Shown here: positions 22,101-51,986 of the stretch, piece by piece | Numbering within the stretch: the stretch's first letter is position 1 | Layout of the letters: each line of letters begins with the position of its first letter | UHGV virus genome: UHGV-1375844 | Source of the DNA: a virus | Length of the DNA stretch: 64,000 bases | Direction: 5' to 3' (one strand) | Made by a program: the position numbers and the translations under genes | Notes under the pieces: model-generated | What the model was told of the DNA's origin: nothing | The model's database searches: none | Seen by the model: the letters and a program-made list of their open reading frames with translations, nothing else

Positions 22101-22346
22101 TCATCCTCTGTACTCGATAAATGCCAGGGCAAGCTGCTCTACGCTGTACCCGTCCTTCAACTGCTTCCCAAATACTCTTTCAACAACGCGCTTGTCTGGA
22201 TTAAAGATGTAGTTGCCGGGAAACTTGGTTCTGAAAACCTGCCCGTCTTTTACTAGCCACCAGGCGTTTACGATTGCCACTCTGTAACTGCGTGGCACTG
22301 TCACTTCTGATATTGCGATCGGTATTAATTCCATATGAGTAACCAA
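22101..22346 (-). CDS. hypothetical protein (81 aa)
   Basis: ORF upstream of the RecA-like terminator. Confidence 0.4.
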   Translation of the reverse strand: MVTHMELIPIAISEVTVPRSYRVAIVNAWWLVKDGQVFRTKFPGNYIFNPDKRVVERVFGKQLKDGYSVEQLALAFIEYRG

Positions 22347-22390
22347 TTTGTTTTCTTGTATGTGATATTAATCAGAAAAAAACGGCGTCC

Positions 22391-26431: not shown

Positions 26432-26873
26432 AAGCGACTCGCTTCCTGAAAATGTTCGAAAGCGTAACTCTGGTCTGACGTCGCAACCTGTATTTCCTCA
26501 CATCGCCAATCTTATTCACTTCCATGAACTCTTTGGCCACCTTCAGTACCAGTCGATTGCGGAACACTTTGAACGCCTCCAGCTGTTCCTCTGGGTTATC
26601 CGATTCGTAGATCTCTAACAGATACTGGCACGCCTTCGGATCTTGCGTTTTGAGCGCCAGCGCTCTGGCACATTTACGCAAGCGACTGACTTTATCGGCT
26701 CCATCCAGCCCGGCAAACGCCAGTGCCAGATCTAACGTGACCGGGCAGTCGATGATTTCCCAGAACTGCGAGCGCATGGTGGCCGCTACCGCTTTGTCTT
26801 GAAAGTCCGCTGGAATTGCCGCCAGCTCGTGTGCAATCTTCTGTGCCTCACTCATGTTGTTCTCTTTGCTCAT
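26430..26873 (-). CDS. hypothetical protein (147 aa)
   Basis: ORF ending 4 nt inside the polymerase gene. Confidence 0.4.
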   Translation of the reverse strand: MSKENNMSEAQKIAHELAAIPADFQDKAVAATMRSQFWEIIDCPVTLDLALAFAGLDGADKVSRLRKCARALALKTQDPKACQYLLEIYESDNPEEQLEAFKVFRNRLVLKVAKEFMEVNKIGDVRKYRLRRQTRVTLSNIFRKRVA

Positions 26874-29800
26874 TTGCCAATCGTCTCCGCTACCTCGGCC
26901 AGAATCGCCTCCAGCTTCTCTCCTTCCTCTGGGCGGAAGTACAAAATGTTTGGGTTAAAACCGTAGAAGACGGTCACATCCAGATCCGGCAGATACTCTT
27001 TGCGACCAACCAGATCAGAGGGTTTGCTCTTATTGTTGAAAAGAGATGTCGCCCGGCTGCCACACGTCAGCACATAGGTCGGACGTACCAGATTGATTTC
27101 TTCACGCATGAAGTCGGTGAACTGGCCGATCTCATCTTTGGTGTAGTCCTTCTCCTTGTCCTTTACCTTCTTGCACACGCCAGTGACGTAGAGGTCTCCC
27201 ATACGCAGATCGCCTGCAGTAAGCAGCTTCGCCTTAAAATCGTCGTAACCGTTCTCCATGAAGTAGCCAGTACGTCCATCATTGCCGTTCGCGTTGTCCA
27301 GAATGACCATGATTTTCGGCTTAATGCCAATGCTCGGGCGGATCAGGTCGTCACCCAGCCCCATTTCGGCCGCCATGCGAGTCATCAGTACATTCACTTC
27401 GGCAGAACGCTTAGGGTTCATCTCGAACGGGCGAGAGGCTTTTACAGCGTCGATCACCAGATTGCCCATCAACTCTGCCTGGTCGCGCAGCCGTTCCGGA
27501 TCTGTCGCTGGCAGACTACCAGGTTCAATCGATGCGAACGCACCTACCTTTTGCAGTGACTCGCGTACCCGGCTGTTACATGCACGCTTCTCGACCGCTT
27601 CCTCGAATTGCGCCAGTGACTCGAATTTACCGCCGACTTTTTCTCTCGCCCGCATAATGGCCTGACAGCCATTCTCAGAACAGCCTTTGACTGCGGAGAA
27701 GGGGGCATAAAGAACCTGGCTACCATCTTCCAGTGTGCGGATCTCGATGCGGTTCGACGACACGTTTACATCTGGTGGTAAGACGCGGATGCCATAGGTG
27801 AGCGCATCCTTTACCAGACCCTGGTGTTTGTCCTCGCCCAGAATAGTGAGCGCAGCAGCAAAGAACTCAGCAGGGAAATGAGTTTTCAGCCACATGGATT
27901 GATAACTGATCAGCGAATAGGCCACAGAGTGTGATTTGTTGAACTGGTAAGCACCGTTCTTCTCGAATGCCTCCCAAATTTCTTTCGCTTTCATTTCTGA
28001 CAAACCTGCGTGTGAGCCTGTCACGCGCACAATTGCCATAGGTAACTTCACGCCTTTCTCAAGAGCCTCTTCCACTGTTAGCAGTGTTCCGTCTTCACAT
28101 TTGAAATGTTCGGCTCGATGAACGCGCTGCGTTGTGCCGTCTGCCAGCTCAACATCAATCCATCCAGCTTGAGCCTGGGCGATAAATCTTTCCCCCATGC
28201 TCTTCATTTTCTCCATATCTTTCTTACCGATCGCCTTACGTACCCCATCTGCCTCAGCCATTGTGAAGCCGGCCAGCAAACGAGTCGCACTCATGGTTTG
28301 CTCCTGATAGAGAATGACGCCATTTGTTTCGGCGGTTAACTCATCCAGTACCGGGTGCAGTGATTGCGGAGTCATGAAGCCTTTGGCAACTGCGACGTAA
28401 TCATCCAACATGCCTGACTGAATTGGGCCAGGGCGAAATAGTGCGGTCGTAGCGACAACGGTTTTAAAGCTCATTGGCTCAATGCCACCGCCCAGATCTT
28501 TAAGTAACTTGCGCATGGGGCCGGACTCCAGCTGGAAGACACCCTGCGTATATCCGGCAGCAAACCCATCCAGAACCTTACGATCGTCAAGCGGAATGGC
28601 GTCGAGATTGATGTCTTCCCCTGTGCTTTCTTTGATGTATCGCTTCGCGCTGTCCAGAAGGTCGAGCGTTGCCAGACCGAGAACGTCCAGCTTAATCAGC
28701 CCCATCGCCTCGCAGTAACGCTTGTCGAATGCGATACAACGAGCATTGCCTCGCAGCTCGACAGGGGTTCTTTCAATCAGTGGTACGCCAGCAACGATCA
28801 TCCCCGCAGCATGGCGGCCGAAGCCACGCATCAGATTTTGAAGTTTGCAGGCGGCTTTGAAAGCATCCGGGTTTTTGGTGGCGTATTTATCCAGGCTGGC
28901 CAGTTGTTCACGCAGCTCTTCAAGGGACAGGCTGTCGTCTTCCAGATTTTTAAACTCTTTAGAAACGGCCATGTCCGCGGCGTCGACACCGAAAATGCGC
29001 GCGGTGTCGCGCAAAGCAGAGGCGGCGCCCAGATAGGTAAAGTTAGGAATGCCGGCGACATATTCTTCGCCATAGCGTTCATTCAGATACTCGATCACCT
29101 CATGGCGACGCGCCTGGCTGAAGTCCAGATCCGCATCCGGAAGGTCAAGACGTTCTGGGTTAATGAAACGCTCAAACAGCAGACCGTGGCGAATAGGGTC
29201 TACGTTTGTGATGCCAATGCACCACGCCACCAGAGAACCAGCAGAAGAACCACGCCCAGGCCCAACGGGAATACCGGCTTCACGACTGTGATTCATCAGA
29301 TCGCGAACCATCAGAAAATAGCCGCAGAAACCCAGCCGAGTCAGCGTGTCCATCTCGTATTTGAGGCGATCGACATACACGCGGTGTTCAGAAGCTGGTG
29401 GGGTGTAGCCAAACTCTTTGGTAGTAAGACGCTTGCGCAGCCCTGCGACTGCCAGCTTCATCAGCGTTGCAGGTTCGTCGTCTGCCATCTTTGGCAGTGC
29501 TGGGGGCAATTCATGCCAGCGCCAGGTGCAGGCTTCAACAATGGCGTCCTGAGTGGAAGAGGCCATTGCAGCTGTGACCGGCACATCCATACGAACGGAG
29601 AACGCTTTCAGCGCTTCCAACAGATGACGGCGCCCATTAACGGCATTATCACGCTGGTGGGGAATACGCAGACGATGCGGCTGGTCGATTTTGATGTTGT
29701 TCGTCACCATGTGCGCAATGTCTTTAATGTCAGCATCGTCGACCGCTTCGTAATAAGCTGGGTAGAACGCCACTGGCTCAATTTTTAGTGCGCTTGCCAC

Positions 29801-39045: not shown

Positions 39046-39066
39046 GATAAGTAAGTCATTACTTAT
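39046..39066. promoter_or_regulatory. dispersed palindromic motif copy (GATAAGTAAGTCATTACTTAT)
   Basis: Between the PhoH start and the plus-strand AT-rich gene. Confidence 0.5.
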
Positions 39067-39205
39067 TTATCGTGGCTTTGTGCTAGGTTAAAACAGCTTT
39101 GGGGAGCTGGTGCGCTTAAGGCCTTCCAGAAAACTCAAACTAGCTGAAATAGTAGGGTCAATTAGGTATCATTCCTTTTCAAATTTAACCAAAGACTCTT
39201 ATAAA

Positions 39206-40438
39206 ATGCCTGCTTTGTTAATTCTCATAATTGGGACATTGATGATTATTTTCTGGGATGTGATTAAGGAAAACGTAGAGGTTATAGGTACGCTTGCCAC
39301 TTCACTTGCCTTTTTTGCTACTGCCTGGGCTGCTTACGAGGCAAGGCATAGTGCAAAGGCGGCAATGAAGGCGACCCAGCTGACGGCTGATTCACTTCTT
39401 GAAATGAAAAAAGCCTCTTTTAAGGAGTGGTACGGCATTTTACTTGAACAGCATAATAAATTACTTGAGGATGTTAATAAGACCTTATTGGATGACAATG
39501 AACTTAATACCAGGTTGAATATTAATGTCATAAGAGGTATTTATTATCACGTAACCAAAAATCCTGCTTACATTAAGTATATTAATCACATAATTTTAAT
39601 CCTGAATTATGTAGATAAAGACTTTTATCTGCCGTCCTCGGCGGAAAATGAAAAGAGATCTTATATAGAACAGTTGCGCAACAGCATTAGCCCAAAAGTA
39701 AGCCTGCTGATTGCTATTTTTGGCCTTAATATCGACAATAATAAAACTTATGATGCAAAGAAACTTTACAACCTTCTAAGCAAATATAACTTTTTTGAAA
39801 ATGAGCTATTTTTTGAAGTTGCAATATCAAAAGTTCATTACTTAGACACTTATGTCGCCGAGATATTTGACAAAGAATACCGAAAAGACGTTGAATTTTA
39901 TGTTGATGAAACGGTTTGTGGTCGTGCGCTCTCTTTTATCAATACGACATGCCGACACCATAGGATTACTTTCGCAGTTCAGTGGTCTTACAACAACCCC
40001 TGCCAAAAGCATTTGCTGAAAAGATTCAATGACCTACCTATGCACATGAGAAACGTCATTGGGCTGAACATGGAAAAAGCAGCCGAGAAAGTGGCTACGT
40101 TTAATTCTGAGTTGCCTGGTTTTGTCGGCTGGGAAATTAAGATTGCTAATAATAAGGTGAGAGTAATTAAGGATGAAAAAGAACTGAAAAGGCTAATAAA
40201 GCTTTACTATAAATACCCCTTTGACCCTCGACAAACTGGTATCGTGTTAACCAATGGTTTCACCAATAGATTCGCCGATGAGATTAGGAATAGTATGTCT
40301 AGCTATGCTTTACATAAAGCCTATCTAGAACTCAGCTCTAATCCGAACAAAGATCAGGTAATTGATGAGATTGTGTCAGAGGTTGAAAAAATGGTCGATA
40401 AATTTAAAACAGAACTTAATTCTTTCTGCTTTAACTGA
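39206..40438 (+). CDS. membrane-anchored protein of unknown function (two N-terminal TM helices plus ~350 aa domain); AT-rich moron
   Basis: Hydrophobic segments MPALLILIIGTLMIIFW and VIGTLATSLAFFATAWAAY; plus strand; visibly AT-rich; followed by terminator. Confidence 0.5.
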   Translation: MPALLILIIGTLMIIFWDVIKENVEVIGTLATSLAFFATAWAAYEARHSAKAAMKATQLTADSLLEMKKASFKEWYGILLEQHNKLLEDVNKTLLDDNELNTRLNINVIRGIYYHVTKNPAYIKYINHIILILNYVDKDFYLPSSAENEKRSYIEQLRNSISPKVSLLIAIFGLNIDNNKTYDAKKLYNLLSKYNFFENELFFEVAISKVHYLDTYVAEIFDKEYRKDVEFYVDETVCGRALSFINTTCRHHRITFAVQWSYNNPCQKHLLKRFNDLPMHMRNVIGLNMEKAAEKVATFNSELPGFVGWEIKIANNKVRVIKDEKELKRLIKLYYKYPFDPRQTGIVLTNGFTNRFADEIRNSMSSYALHKAYLELSSNPNKDQVIDEIVSEVEKMVDKFKTELNSFCFN

Positions 40439-40448
40439 CTAAAAGAAA

Positions 40449-40475
40449 AGGGGCCGAAGCCCCTTTGGATTTTGC
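40449..40475 (+). terminator. rho-independent terminator (AGGGGC-cgaa-GCCCCT, T-rich tail)
   Basis: Hairpin followed by TTTGGATTTT directly after the AT-rich gene. Confidence 0.65.
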
Positions 40476-40638
40476 GCTGAAAAAAGTCTAACTACGATGC
40501 TAAGAAGCACTATGGTTAAGAACGTCTGCCGTGTCTATCACAGCGTTGAACGGTCTGGGTGACGTTAGCGGAGTCATTTAGTGAATGGAATCCCAAACCG
40601 TTCAGCGATGTGCTGGCCTCCGCAGAGGCCAGTCGGTA

Positions 40639-41250
40639 TTACGATTTGCCGGCGTTAACTACCACGCCCTGGCGACGAGAGTCAGCTTCGGCAATCTTCA
40701 GTCGAGTTTCGCGTTCGGCCTTCAGCTCGCCCTGCAATTGGGCCACCTGCGACTCAAGGAACTCGATACGAGAGTCTTTCGCGGCGCTGGATGCGTTCAG
40801 TTCCGCCATTTCCACACGATGATCAGACTTCAGCTGGTTGACTTCCGCAGTAAATTTGCTGGCAGCTGCGCTATAGCCAGCTTCGCGAGCTGTGTTAACC
40901 GCCTCTTCGTTGTTGTCCAGCGCGTTTTCAAGATCGCGCTTAAGCTGAGTCAGCTCGACGTTGGAAATGCTGGCCAGACCGCGCTTCTTCATCAGATCCG
41001 CAAGTACGCCATCTTCGTTTTCGATTACCTTCAGACGCAGTTCCGCAGCCTTTTCTCGCTCTTTACTTGCGAACTGGCTATCCAGACCAGCCAGCTCAGC
41101 CTGGCGATATTCAATTTCTTCGGCCAACGTAACGCTGGTTTGTGAAAGGGTGTTCAGCTCGGTCGCAACCTTCGCCATATCACCGGCAGCTTTAACCATT
41201 GCTTTGGTGGAACGCTCAGTTAGGGAGATGACTTTCTTAACTTCGGACAT
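40639..41250 (-). CDS. coiled-coil protein of unknown function
   Basis: Heptad-like, charge-rich sequence throughout. Confidence 0.4.
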   Translation of the reverse strand: MSEVKKVISLTERSTKAMVKAAGDMAKVATELNTLSQTSVTLAEEIEYRQAELAGLDSQFASKEREKAAELRLKVIENEDGVLADLMKKRGLASISNVELTQLKRDLENALDNNEEAVNTAREAGYSAAASKFTAEVNQLKSDHRVEMAELNASSAAKDSRIEFLESQVAQLQGELKAERETRLKIAEADSRRQGVVVNAGKS

Positions 41251-41275
41251 GTGTTTTCCTTCGTCGCTTTTATAT

Positions 41276-41362
41276 TGGCGGAAGGTAATGGAATCGAACC
41301 ATCACCGCGCTCGCAGTGGGACGGTTTTCAAGACCGCTTGAGCACCATGCTCCCTACCTTCC
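41276..41362 (-). tRNA. tRNA-Ser (anticodon TGA), type II with long variable arm
   Basis: Hand-folded: 7 bp acceptor GGAAGGT/ACCTTCC, anticodon loop CTTGAAA, T-loop TTCGATT, encoded CCA. Confidence 0.7.
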
Positions 41363-41604
41363 GTTATTTAGTGTGGTGGCCGGCGCTGATCTCCGGCATA
41401 ACAACCCGACTTAAATTCGCGACTTTAAATCGGTTCCTCCGTTTGTCCACTTTAGCCCGGAGTTAGCAACCTCAGTCACTCACCGATATGCCTATCGGTG
41501 GCGCGCATCAGCCTGCGCATTCACCACAACGGTGAGAGCACTCTTGGCGAACCTGTAGATTGGGCTATGATCCCGTTACAAGCGAATGCTCTTACCTGTT
41601 GTGT

Positions 41605-41737
41605 TGGTGCCGGTTAACGGACTCGAACCGTTGACCTCTGGCCTAACATCGGATCGTTGTCATTGACCAGCCATGCTGTCTACCGAAGTAGAAACGATGC
41701 TTTGGCTCTCGCGCTCTACCAACTGAGCTAAACCGGC
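41605..41737 (-). tRNA. tRNA-like gene with ~57 nt insertion between D-arm and T-arm (possible pseudogene or interrupted tRNA)
   Basis: Canonical acceptor GCCGGTT/AACCGGC, D-arm TAGCTCAGTTGGTAGAGC, T-arm AACGG-TTCGAGT-CCGTT and CCA, but 133 nt long and no canonical anticodon arm found. Confidence 0.4.
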
Positions 41738-41739
41738 AT

Positions 41740-41814
41740 TGGCGATGATGGGTGGATTCGAACCACCGACCAGTTGATTAACAGTCAACCGCTCTACCAC
41801 TGAGCTACACCATC
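41740..41814 (-). tRNA. tRNA-Asn (anticodon GTT)
   Basis: Hand-folded cloverleaf: D-arm GCTC/GAGC, anticodon arm GTTGA-CTGTTAA-TCAAC, T-arm GGTGG-TTCGAAT-CCACC, encoded CCA. Confidence 0.8.
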
Positions 41815-42533
41815 AATTTCGCAGCGGTACTGGCTTCAAAGATGAAGTTTTCCCGCAACTTGCACTTTGCGTTAGTGCCAGACGAGGCTTGCGGCTCGCT
41901 CAAATAGAGCGAAGATCTTAAACACTGCTCGGTGCTTCAGAGAGCGCCGGGGAGTCAGATCTTATTGGATGTATGGAATCATCCGTGTTGTGGCAGCTAC
42001 ATGCTAAAACCAGAGGGTATTACTATTGCCACAACGTTGAGGCCACTAAACCAGTAATGTTTGCCCAACATCTTTGTCAGTCGCTACAGCCTCTGTGGAT
42101 TCACCTGTATGATTGAAAGAAACAGTGGCCTCAACGTTGTGTGCTGGCTAACCAGGCCAGCCGGGTTACGTCGCCGATCTTCTTTAACCCAAGACAAAAC
42201 GACATAAGTAATGGAAATGACGTAACAGGATGAACGGTCGATAACTGAAACCGGGATAGGTGAATGGAATGAGGAAACCAACCGCCCATCCTGTTACTTC
42301 ATCGGAGAGGGCATGGGTGGTGCCGTATCATGCCCTCTCCTGCGTTCTGCAATCACACTCGCTCAGTGTGTCCCATTTCGGTGACGAGGCTGGAAACTGA
42401 CCTCGCTGGTGTTTGGCTTATTATGCTACTGCCAGATACTGATTGTCGTTTGCAGTTATCTTTAAACGTTCAAACAGTCGCGTACTAACGAAAACAAAGC
42501 AATCTTATACATATCATAAAAATAAGTAAATAC

Positions 42534-42839
42534 TTATCTATCGGTTATGCGTTCAGTTGATAACTTTTTGATCAGAGTCCCCTTCGAAGAGGGGGTTCGT
42601 GAGACAGTGGCGGTAAATCGCTTACCGTGGATAGTAATACTCTCGTGCTCCTTCAGTTCCCCATAGCGGATTTCCAATAGGGCGCCAAGACGCCATAGTC
42701 CATCATCGATACGCTTTTTACTGGCAAACTTTATCAGCAACCATTTCACAATAAATTGGCCTGCAGCGAATGCGCACGCAACGCCAGCTGCCGTAAAGTA
42801 GGCGACCAGCCACCAGTCGAGTGAGGTCAGTTCCGTCAT
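42534..42839 (-). CDS. membrane protein (N-terminal TM helix, 101 aa)
   Basis: WWLVAYFTAAGVACAFAAGQFIV hydrophobic segment; ATGA overlap with the upstream small ORF. Confidence 0.4.
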   Translation of the reverse strand: MTELTSLDWWLVAYFTAAGVACAFAAGQFIVKWLLIKFASKKRIDDGLWRLGALLEIRYGELKEHESITIHGKRFTATVSRTPSSKGTLIKKLSTERITDR

Positions 42840-42988
42840 TTTGGCGCCCCTGTTTCATGAACTACACGATATACACGCTTGCCTATGCGCATAGATTTTG
42901 TTTTAAGCTGCTGCTTAACCAGATGTCGATGTGCGATGAAGCCGAGGCTCGCGCCAACAATCAAAGCTAATGTGATGTATGGAATCAT
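42836..42988 (-). CDS. small membrane protein (~50 aa, below track cutoff)
   Basis: Hand-translated MIPYITLALIVGASLGFIAHRH...; start overlaps the upstream stop. Confidence 0.3.
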   Translation of the reverse strand: MIPYITLALIVGASLGFIAHRHLVKQQLKTKSMRIGKRVYRVVHETGAPK

Positions 42989-48745: not shown

Positions 48746-48805
48746 GTGCTTTCCTTTAGTTCTTAAACAAATTGTTTTCTAATGCTAAAAAAGCCAGATA
48801 GGGGA

Positions 48806-51791: not shown

Positions 51792-51986
51792 TGAATAGTT
51801 CCCTTTGCGTGAATTATTGTCGTATGAAACAACTTGTTTTCTTATATGCGATATAGCCTAAATGCCTACGGCTGCGGTGTAAAGGTGAAATGGTAGGTAT
51901 TATCGAGATAGAGAGGGTCTTGAGATTAAGAATGAGAAGAGGTAAACAACTTTTGGCGAGAAGGCGGCACATAGCCGCCAGACTGT

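Follow-up and report, generated by a model that had tools for sequence, protein, structure and literature searches.

The Cre/loxP system of phage P1 pairs a recombinase gene with a single adjacent site, in which symmetric 13-bp arms flank an asymmetric spacer, on a plasmid prophage that carries one such site per replicon. In TnpI/IRS of Tn4430, and with the third 13-bp element of FRT, extra copies of the arm outside the core have a known or supposed accessory role and exchange no strands; these motifs abut the core, lying within about 100 bp of it at fixed spacing. The sfx sites of Rci in the R64 shufflon have a 7-bp spacer and one conserved 12-bp arm; they share the spacer and invert segments. 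The arm-type sites of the lambda family differ from the core sites, are read by a separate N-terminal domain, and belong to an attP of about 250 bp, and the KOPS/FtsK and Ter/Tus systems use polar elements that converge on dif. We analyzed a stretch of 64,000 nucleotides of the virus genome UHGV-1375844 (hereafter the window), in which a lox-like palindrome lies next to a tyrosine recombinase gene and four single copies of the palindrome's arm lie dispersed around it. With moderate confidence, we interpret the palindrome as the lox-type site of this recombinase and the single copies as putative non-crossover, single-arm binding elements of the same enzyme. To our knowledge, conserved inward-pointing single arms at kilobase distance in coding sequence are known from none of Cre/loxP, Flp/FRT, Xer/dif, TnpI/IRS, and Rci/sfx.

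The window is a phage-plasmid of the SSU5/pHCM2/pMT1 group. Its sequence is 99.8% identical to that of pSA20094620.2 from Salmonella enterica (NZ_CP030187.1, 106,569 bp, IncFIB RepA), whose record coordinates are converted to window coordinates by adding 17,708. The minus strand carries almost all genes surrounding the arm copies. The palindrome, the recombinase gene, and the single copies are located as follows:

36391-36423, no strand assigned: full site with 13-bp inverted arms AATGATTCCATAC / GTATGGAATCATT and the asymmetric 7-bp spacer TTAATAG; the integrase start follows about 100 bp downstream; presumed crossover site.
35187-36293, minus strand: tyrosine recombinase gene (int; "site-specific integrase", 368 amino acids (aa); Pfam Phage_integrase).
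30124-30138, plus strand: single copy ATGATTCCATACATC, antisense inside a DNA polymerase III alpha-like gene (dnaE, 26870-30388, minus strand); with the preceding A at 30123 it matches the arm at 13/13 positions.
35676-35690, plus strand: single copy TTGATTCCATACATC, antisense inside the integrase gene at the codons D-V-W-N-Q; the weakest of the four.
41968-41982, minus strand: single copy ATGATTCCATACATC, non-coding, 154 nt upstream of tRNA-Asn (41740-41814, minus strand).
42974-42988, minus strand: single copy ATGATTCCATACATC at the start (M-I-P-Y-I) of a 50-aa membrane open reading frame (ORF; orf50, 42836-42988, minus strand), overlapping the stop of an upstream 82-aa ORF.

The initial annotation had noticed that the same 12-mer makes up both arms of the palindrome at 36391-36423, which the sequence confirms, and that the word recurs twice near the tRNA genes. 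On the plus strand both of these copies read as the 15-mer GATGTATGGAATCAT. The copy at 42974-42988 lies exactly where it was reported and supplies the ATG of orf50, which reads MIPYI, but the other, placed at about 41969-41983, was one base off and truly spans 41968-41982. A search allowing up to one mismatch, wider than the exact-match search that had been proposed as a check, recovered both and also brought up the two single copies at 30124-30138 and 35676-35690 that had been overlooked (12-mer matches at 30124-30135, plus strand, and, with one mismatch, at 35676-35687, plus strand). The recurrence is non-random: at up to one mismatch the 12-mer occurs 6 times in the window, compared to a mean of 0.26 in 100 shuffles of the window, none of which (0/100) reached 6. 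The chance frequency that the initial annotation had named, along with a lack of binding by the recombinase, as grounds for abandoning its proposal is clearly exceeded. The copies are also clustered; the complete 106,569-bp plasmid contains no further copy of the arm word, so that all six lie within 12.9 kb. Two of the four single copies are on the plus strand to the left of the palindrome and two on the minus strand to its right, at distances of 0.7 to 6.5 kb.

All four single copies share the exact 14-mer TGATTCCATACATC, from which the palindrome arms part after ...CATAC, and their identity to the arm is 12-13 of 13. The letters at their spacer positions (ATCCTCC, ATCACGT, ATCCAAT, and ATCACAT, versus TTAATAG in the palindrome) match neither each other nor the palindrome, and when the sequence 6-8 bp past each copy was read for a degenerate second arm, matches were at 1-6 of 13 positions, so we rejected this possibility and regard the copies as true single arms rather than crossover sites. 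A dimer site formed by the internal dyad of the 14-mer (its GATG...CATC ends) was judged too weak, with 8 of 14 positions self-complementary. The three copies inside genes correspond to different peptides, GCMESL (DnaE, antisense), DVWNQ (Int, antisense), and MIPYI (orf50, whose start reads MIPYITLALIVGASLGF... and which has one N-terminal hydrophobic helix). These differences in frame and strand show that the repeat is a word at the DNA level and not a shared peptide.

The palindrome itself is part of a wider pattern. In 14/14 divergent lineages examined, non-phage plasmids included, a palindrome of the form 12-14 / 7 / 12-14 is present 60-135 bp upstream of int. Type A arms, (A/G)TGATTCCATAC, accompany integrases that are at least 56% identical and occur in Salmonella, E. 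coli, Enterobacter, Yersinia, Klebsiella, and Serratia; type B arms, TGACTCCAGAC, accompany integrases that are 45-53% identical and occur in Xenorhabdus, Providencia, Erwinia, and metagenome contigs. Both types combine 12-14-bp arms with a 7-bp spacer. Type-B sites adjoin int also in an Erwinia plasmid (L192, which lacks an XRE gene as well) and in a 120-kb contig (L196), both of which have no phage genes; this association outside phage contexts indicates that the palindrome belongs to the integrase. The spacer (36404-36410 in the window) takes at least 10 forms among close relatives, whereas the arms are unchanged; a tyrosine-recombinase site is expected to combine frozen arms and a hypervariable spacer in this way. 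Loci of the Buttiauxella type have the same spacer in the opposite orientation relative to int, an arrangement that simple site-specific recombination cannot produce. Of 5,426 complete E. coli genomes, 252 contain the palindrome, in a single copy per plasmid and in no case on a chromosome, which argues for a plasmid resolution or cyclization site and against an attP with a chromosomal partner; a chromosomal attB was rejected on this ground. A replication origin or terminus at the palindrome was likewise rejected, as there is no GC-skew switch and the skew follows the uniform minus-strand transcription. With its arms, asymmetric spacer, and adjoining recombinase gene, the sequence at 36391-36423 has the layout of a simple site of the lox/FRT/dif type, and judging from these comparisons it is most likely a lox-type crossover site for multimer resolution or cyclization, the tasks of Cre/loxP in P1. 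The literature we searched held no published description of this recombinase, its site, or its motif.

For the single copies, conservation was evaluated in alignments of unique sequences, in which 15-nt segments within ±150 nt were ranked (300 segments per copy). The related loci numbered about 190 in total, with SSU5, an Enterobacter plasmid, Kluyvera, Y. pestis, and Buttiauxella among the sources; further related loci came from 100 viral contigs with exact palindrome arms, 80 contigs found via the integrase, and 80 found via DnaE. The outcome for each copy was:

dnaE copy, 30 unique sequences: 1 variable column in the 15-nt motif (flanks 46%); best of 300, tied only with the segment one base to the left.
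orf50-start copy, 20 unique sequences: 0 variable motif columns (flanks 75%); unique best of 300.
tRNA-proximal non-coding copy, 15 unique sequences: 1 variable motif column (flanks 61%); tied best with a block about 100 nt downstream.
int copy, 60 unique sequences: 6 variable motif columns (flanks 59%); not exceptional, 51/300 segments being as conserved.

In the dnaE copy, nearly all flanking wobble positions are variable, whereas those within the motif are not; the copy encodes C-M-E-S-L in a loop, the neighboring residues of which differ between lineages. The dnaE site is not present in Klebsiella, Xenorhabdus, and Providencia, where the loop is unrelated. The tRNA-proximal copy forms a conserved island amid variable non-coding flanks. 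Inside int, only CCTTGATTCCA is near-invariant, and the copy is degenerate to TTGATTCCAAACCCC in one large sub-lineage. The 14-mer is exact even in the most distant group with these arms (Int about 60% and CobT about 50% identical). At the protein level, M-I-P-Y-I in orf50 and W-N-Q-G in Int are both conserved, and since the start of orf50 in Klebsiella has decayed to TTGATCCCATACATT but still encodes M-I-P-Y-I, protein constraint explains part of the conservation of that copy; it does not explain the invariance of its wobble positions in the window's group. The alignments indicate that purifying selection at the DNA level keeps at least three of the four single copies, including inside coding sequence. 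As a side observation, all lineages share a CACAAC word immediately upstream of the tRNA-proximal copy.

The distribution of the single copies follows that of the arms. Single copies occur only in type-A lineages, that is, together with TGATTCCATAC arms. The arms of the Klebsiella type read TGTGATTCCATAC in place of the AATGATTCCATAC of the window, and in those Klebsiella loci that reach that far the non-coding single copy reads (A)TGTGATTCCATACATC, a 13/13 match to the arm of that lineage. The same A-to-G change is therefore found in the arms and in the non-coding single copy, whereas the window's group has A in both arms and single copies. When we extended this covariation test to distant relatives, the type-B lineages were uninformative, having a different arm and no single copies, which leaves the Klebsiella change as the informative case. 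The polarity is constant as well: at loci with a palindrome, 370/370 occurrences of single copies point toward it. Their distances from it vary between 0.7 and 8 kb across relatives, owing to a variable cargo region between the palindrome and the tRNA-proximal copy.

These comparisons bear on the two roles that the initial annotation had offered for the recurring word. A shared translation-initiation element is not supported by the data, as 1/4 copies is at a start codon, two are antisense in genes, and one is intergenic; in Klebsiella, moreover, the word decays to TTGATCCCATACATT while M-I-P-Y-I is kept. The rearrangements that had been envisaged between copies did not appear either: in about 190 related loci, all copies have kept their orientation with respect to the palindrome. 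Extra half-sites for the recombinase, the other proposal, survive the sequence tests: the arms track the integrase clade, the single copies accompany only TGATTCCATAC arms, the Klebsiella arms and non-coding copy changed together, and synonymous and non-coding positions are constant.

In this interpretation the 12-13-nt word is the arm of the adjacent enzyme's site, which one recombinase monomer is expected to bind, and selection has written the single copies and kept them where they are, coding sequence included, in the lineages with TGATTCCATAC arms. Monomers bound to the inward-pointing copies would most likely have an accessory or regulatory role. Titration or positioning of the recombinase is one such role; another is that they engage the palindrome-bound dimer in non-productive synapses and so bias the reaction within one molecule. 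Alternatively, dnaE, int, the orf50 operon, and the tRNA cluster may be subject to local roadblocks. A more ambitious extension, which we consider doubtful, is that monomers kilobases away on both sides control the timing and partner of recombination, by acting as a decoy within the molecule, by filtering synapses, or by forming polar barriers or guides toward the site.

Several observations weigh against a role of the single copies as recombinase elements, the support for which is wholly comparative. The covariation amounts to a single substitution, seen in one lineage. No single copies exist within ±10 kb in type-B phage-plasmids of the same gene order, from which it follows that such copies are not needed for the recombinase's basic job. 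The single copies share an ATC after the arm that occurs in no palindrome spacer, which may indicate that something else reads them instead or in addition. Conservation of the int copy is poor. SSU5 and its close relative L203 are without int and palindrome and have kept three single copies, all of them exact in L203, and pMT1 of Y. pestis CO92 has the palindrome with only the two int-side copies. The 370 occurrences represent about four orthologous sites in a conserved gene order, so that the independent evidence for polarity is p ~1/16. Lastly, we know of no tyrosine recombinase that uses single arms at kilobase distance. As regards SSU5, which lacks int, its tRNA-proximal copy is the only mutated one among the 15 unique sequences; however, the int-less clade is young (96-98% identity), which makes the loss of int a weak test either way. 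The whole int module is absent from SSU5.

The recombinase matches PF00589 with E=7e-10 and 39.4 bits against a cut-off of 27.1. Among 43 homologues R185, K211, R284, and Y316 are invariant and H307 is nearly so; by their position these five would be the catalytic residues. The AF2 model (pLDDT 87) has its best PDB matches in the core-binding and catalytic domains of lambda Int, in Tn1549 Int, and in XerH; a sequence search of Int against solved structures gave no match, so that the fold search alone was informative. Domain match, conserved residues, and fold agree in placing the protein among the tyrosine recombinases. Pfam detects no lambda-type arm-binding N-terminal domain, the N-terminus being predicted to be helical, and the nearest relatives with an Arm-DNA-bind domain (PF13356) are only 25-31% identical. 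Two features lie between the palindrome and the gene:

36319-36366, minus strand: presumed int promoter read from sequence, with -35 TTGATC (36366-36361), 17 nt, and -10 TAATAT (36343-36338).
36338-36319, minus strand: LexA-box-like TACTGTTTATACATACAGTG, overlapping the presumed int promoter; exact match to TACTGT-N8-ACAGTR.

The presumed promoter scores 8 of 12, under the threshold of the scan tool; TTGATC-17-TAATAT and the LexA-box-like element are both conserved in most type-A lineages. At the sequence level the upstream region of int thus has the CTGT-N8-ACAG box over a presumed promoter that characterizes the LexA regulon, and int is probably under SOS control through this promoter.

In its logic, the combination of palindrome and int belongs to the lox-type class and is closest to Cre/loxP. 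The two systems also share the order of site, LexA box, and recombinase, the P1 record annotating a LexA site between lox and cre and the locus described here having a LexA-box-like sequence. However, the spacer is 7 bp here and 8 in loxP, no sequence relationship is detectable, and Cre structures match the model more weakly than does lambda Int. We are not aware of conserved dispersed single arms in Cre/loxP. In P1, one stretch at L289:12269-12281 (record ~56750; ATAGCTTCGTATA) does agree with the loxP arm at 12/13 positions; it lies about 38 kb from lox, and by a rough estimate ~0.06 such matches are expected in the 52 of 94 kb scanned. The accessory motifs of TnpI/IRS and FRT differ from the copies described here, which are 0.7-6.5 kb away on both sides, at distances that vary between relatives. 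Rci/sfx resembles our locus in its 7-bp spacer and one-armed sites; unlike in a shufflon, though, the spacers differ, and no inversion is seen in about 190 loci. The locus may resemble KOPS and Ter in that asymmetric words flank a tyrosine-recombinase site and are directed toward it, but there are only four of them, they are identical to the recombinase arm, and neither a GC-skew switch nor a terminus is present at the palindrome; the closest plasmid record has no annotated FtsK- or Tus-like gene. The lambda arm-type sites are likewise additional sites outside the crossover core, but the recombinase considered here lacks an arm-binding domain, and its extra copies equal the core arm, which sets the locus apart from the lambda type.

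The dispersed copies could instead be operators of another DNA-binding protein, for which the convergent XRE-family gene, the 82-aa winged-helix ORF, or a host factor might be responsible, the palindrome being a bivalent site at the int promoter and the single copies monovalent ones. P1 offers a precedent in its C1 operators, asymmetric sites dispersed over a phage-plasmid along with palindromic "divalent" versions. The ATC extension in the single copies, which is absent from the palindrome, the position of the palindrome just upstream of the int promoter, and the retention of copies in int-less relatives would also fit. Nevertheless, we consider this explanation unlikely. The palindrome travels with int where phage genes are lacking, and in the Erwinia plasmid the XRE gene is lacking too; homologues of the XRE gene occur in type-B phage-plasmids that have no single copies; and the 82-aa ORF is absent from the group with 60%-identical integrases, which keeps exact copies. 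C1 sites overlap promoters, whereas 3/4 of the copies here are in genes, two of them antisense, which are not operator positions, and the palindrome co-varies with the recombinase and not with a repressor. The plasmid furthermore has a separate and typical intergenic motif family, AAACAATTTGTTT. Among host factors, DnaA, IHF, Fur, NarL, ArgR, and Ter sites were compared by their consensus sequences; none fits, and the change of the arm between integrase clades argues against a host reader. Promoters at the copies were rejected because there is no consistent -35/-10 geometry across the classes of site and no excess of promoters around the tRNA/orf50 region.

A second alternative, which we regard as quite unlikely, places the function in RNA. 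The orf50 start and the tRNA leader carry AUGAUUCCAUACAUC, to which a 14-nt word in the dnaE and int mRNAs is perfectly complementary, and pairing of these mRNAs with the orf50 mRNA or with a processed leader RNA would regulate dnaE and int. This would account for the two sense and two antisense copies in co-directional transcription units, and the tRNA-proximal non-coding region folds better than shuffled sequences (z = -3.1); moreover, the two rare variants at well-conserved sites, a T-to-C change in dnaE and an A-to-G change in SSU5, would still allow G-U pairs. However, RNA pairing explains neither the identity of the word with the palindrome arms nor the mirroring of the Klebsiella arm change in the non-coding copy, the Klebsiella orf50 copy changed without compensation in int, and the variants of the int copy break the pairing. 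Rfam matches no family beyond tRNAs, and absolute invariance in place of compensatory change fits a protein site better. A type I toxin-antitoxin pair, in which an antisense RNA covers the start of a small membrane ORF, may also be considered; the 50-aa ORF is, however, in an operon with overlapping stop and start, and the complementary words are inside dnaE and int and not in a dedicated small RNA gene.

The single copies might also be evolutionary scars without present function, that is, hybrid sites from past insertions or inversions that the recombinase mediated between full and secondary sites. Recombination of a full site with a pseudo-site would leave convergent single arms, and the variable cargo (1.2-6.3 kb across relatives) between the palindrome and the tRNA-proximal copy would be in line with such events. 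Yet copies lie in the intact conserved genes dnaE and int, which cannot be insertion junctions, the members of a pair have no common spacer, and SSU5, without the int module, still has the outer copies. Scars would also be expected to decay, whereas the copies are the most conserved words of their neighborhood, and we regard this explanation as very improbable. Chance recurrence combined with ordinary coding constraint is effectively refuted: conservation of the proteins at M-I-P-Y-I and W-N-Q-G explains part of the pattern at those two copies, but four exact 14-mers in 106 kb are far beyond chance, and wobble positions and the non-coding copy are invariant.

The neighborhood of these elements has further features of its own. 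The cargo region (36560-41700 in the window, with counterparts in loci L187, L194, and L195) measures 1.2-6.3 kb, and its genes differ between lineages; they include PhoH, glutaredoxin, Gp49, an AbiC-like protein, a YafO toxin, Acb2/Tad1- and Tad2-like anti-defence proteins, and an ADP-ribosyltransferase-like protein. At 38231-38424 (plus strand), antisense to the phoH-like gene, Rfam matches Ysr251 (Yersinia small RNA 251) with 71 bits, below the gathering score of 100; this family was presumably defined on the homologous region of pMT1. The tRNAs beside the single copy vary by lineage (L195:3139-3214; L187:6238-6319; L194:4324-5157) and comprise Asn/Thr/Arg, Pro(AGG), and Gln; a Serratia-type locus has a tRNA with a CTA (amber-reading) anticodon beside the single copy. 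In Klebsiella the single copy is 14 nt after a sequence resembling a tRNA 3' end (GGTTCGAATCC...GCCA), where ARAGORN calls no tRNA. In the window, the 130 nt between tRNA-Ser and tRNA-Asn (41608-41737, minus strand) score 46.7 bits with the Rfam tRNA model and receive no call from ARAGORN; this stretch may represent either a tRNA carrying an insertion or a tRNA-Thr in decay. At the corresponding place, Asn-Thr is present in P1, P7, and D6. The 720-nt non-coding stretch between a 101-aa ORF and tRNA-Asn (41815-42533, minus strand) is unusually structured (z = -3.1) and contains inverted repeats at 42030-47 / 42124-41 (a perfect 18 bp), 42217-38 / 42281-302, and 42304-15 / 42329-40. The palindromic motif family AAACAATTTGTTT, often followed by TCTTG, is found at 34245-34257, 48765-48777, 51827-51839, and 22341-22353, with at least 10 copies plasmid-wide and 7 matches in the window compared to 0.22 expected; it is probably a phage operator or promoter element unrelated to the recombinase word.

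Phage-plasmids of the SSU5/pHCM2/pMT1 type occur widely in Salmonella, E. coli, Klebsiella, and Yersinia pestis, and their presumed recombination site is now defined as a 13-7-13 palindrome with a hypervariable spacer, next to a recombinase that is probably under SOS control, like cre in P1. Differences in the spacer may serve as an incompatibility barrier where plasmids are co-resident, and the arm types TGATTCCATAC and TGACTCCAGAC with free spacers could be candidates for orthogonal lox-like tools. A long-range architecture, if true, would mean control by dispersed single arms, in contrast to the adjacent accessory sequences of cer, psi, res, and IRS. Should the recombinase bind the single copies, they would represent a long-range accessory element of a sort that we do not know from tyrosine recombinases.

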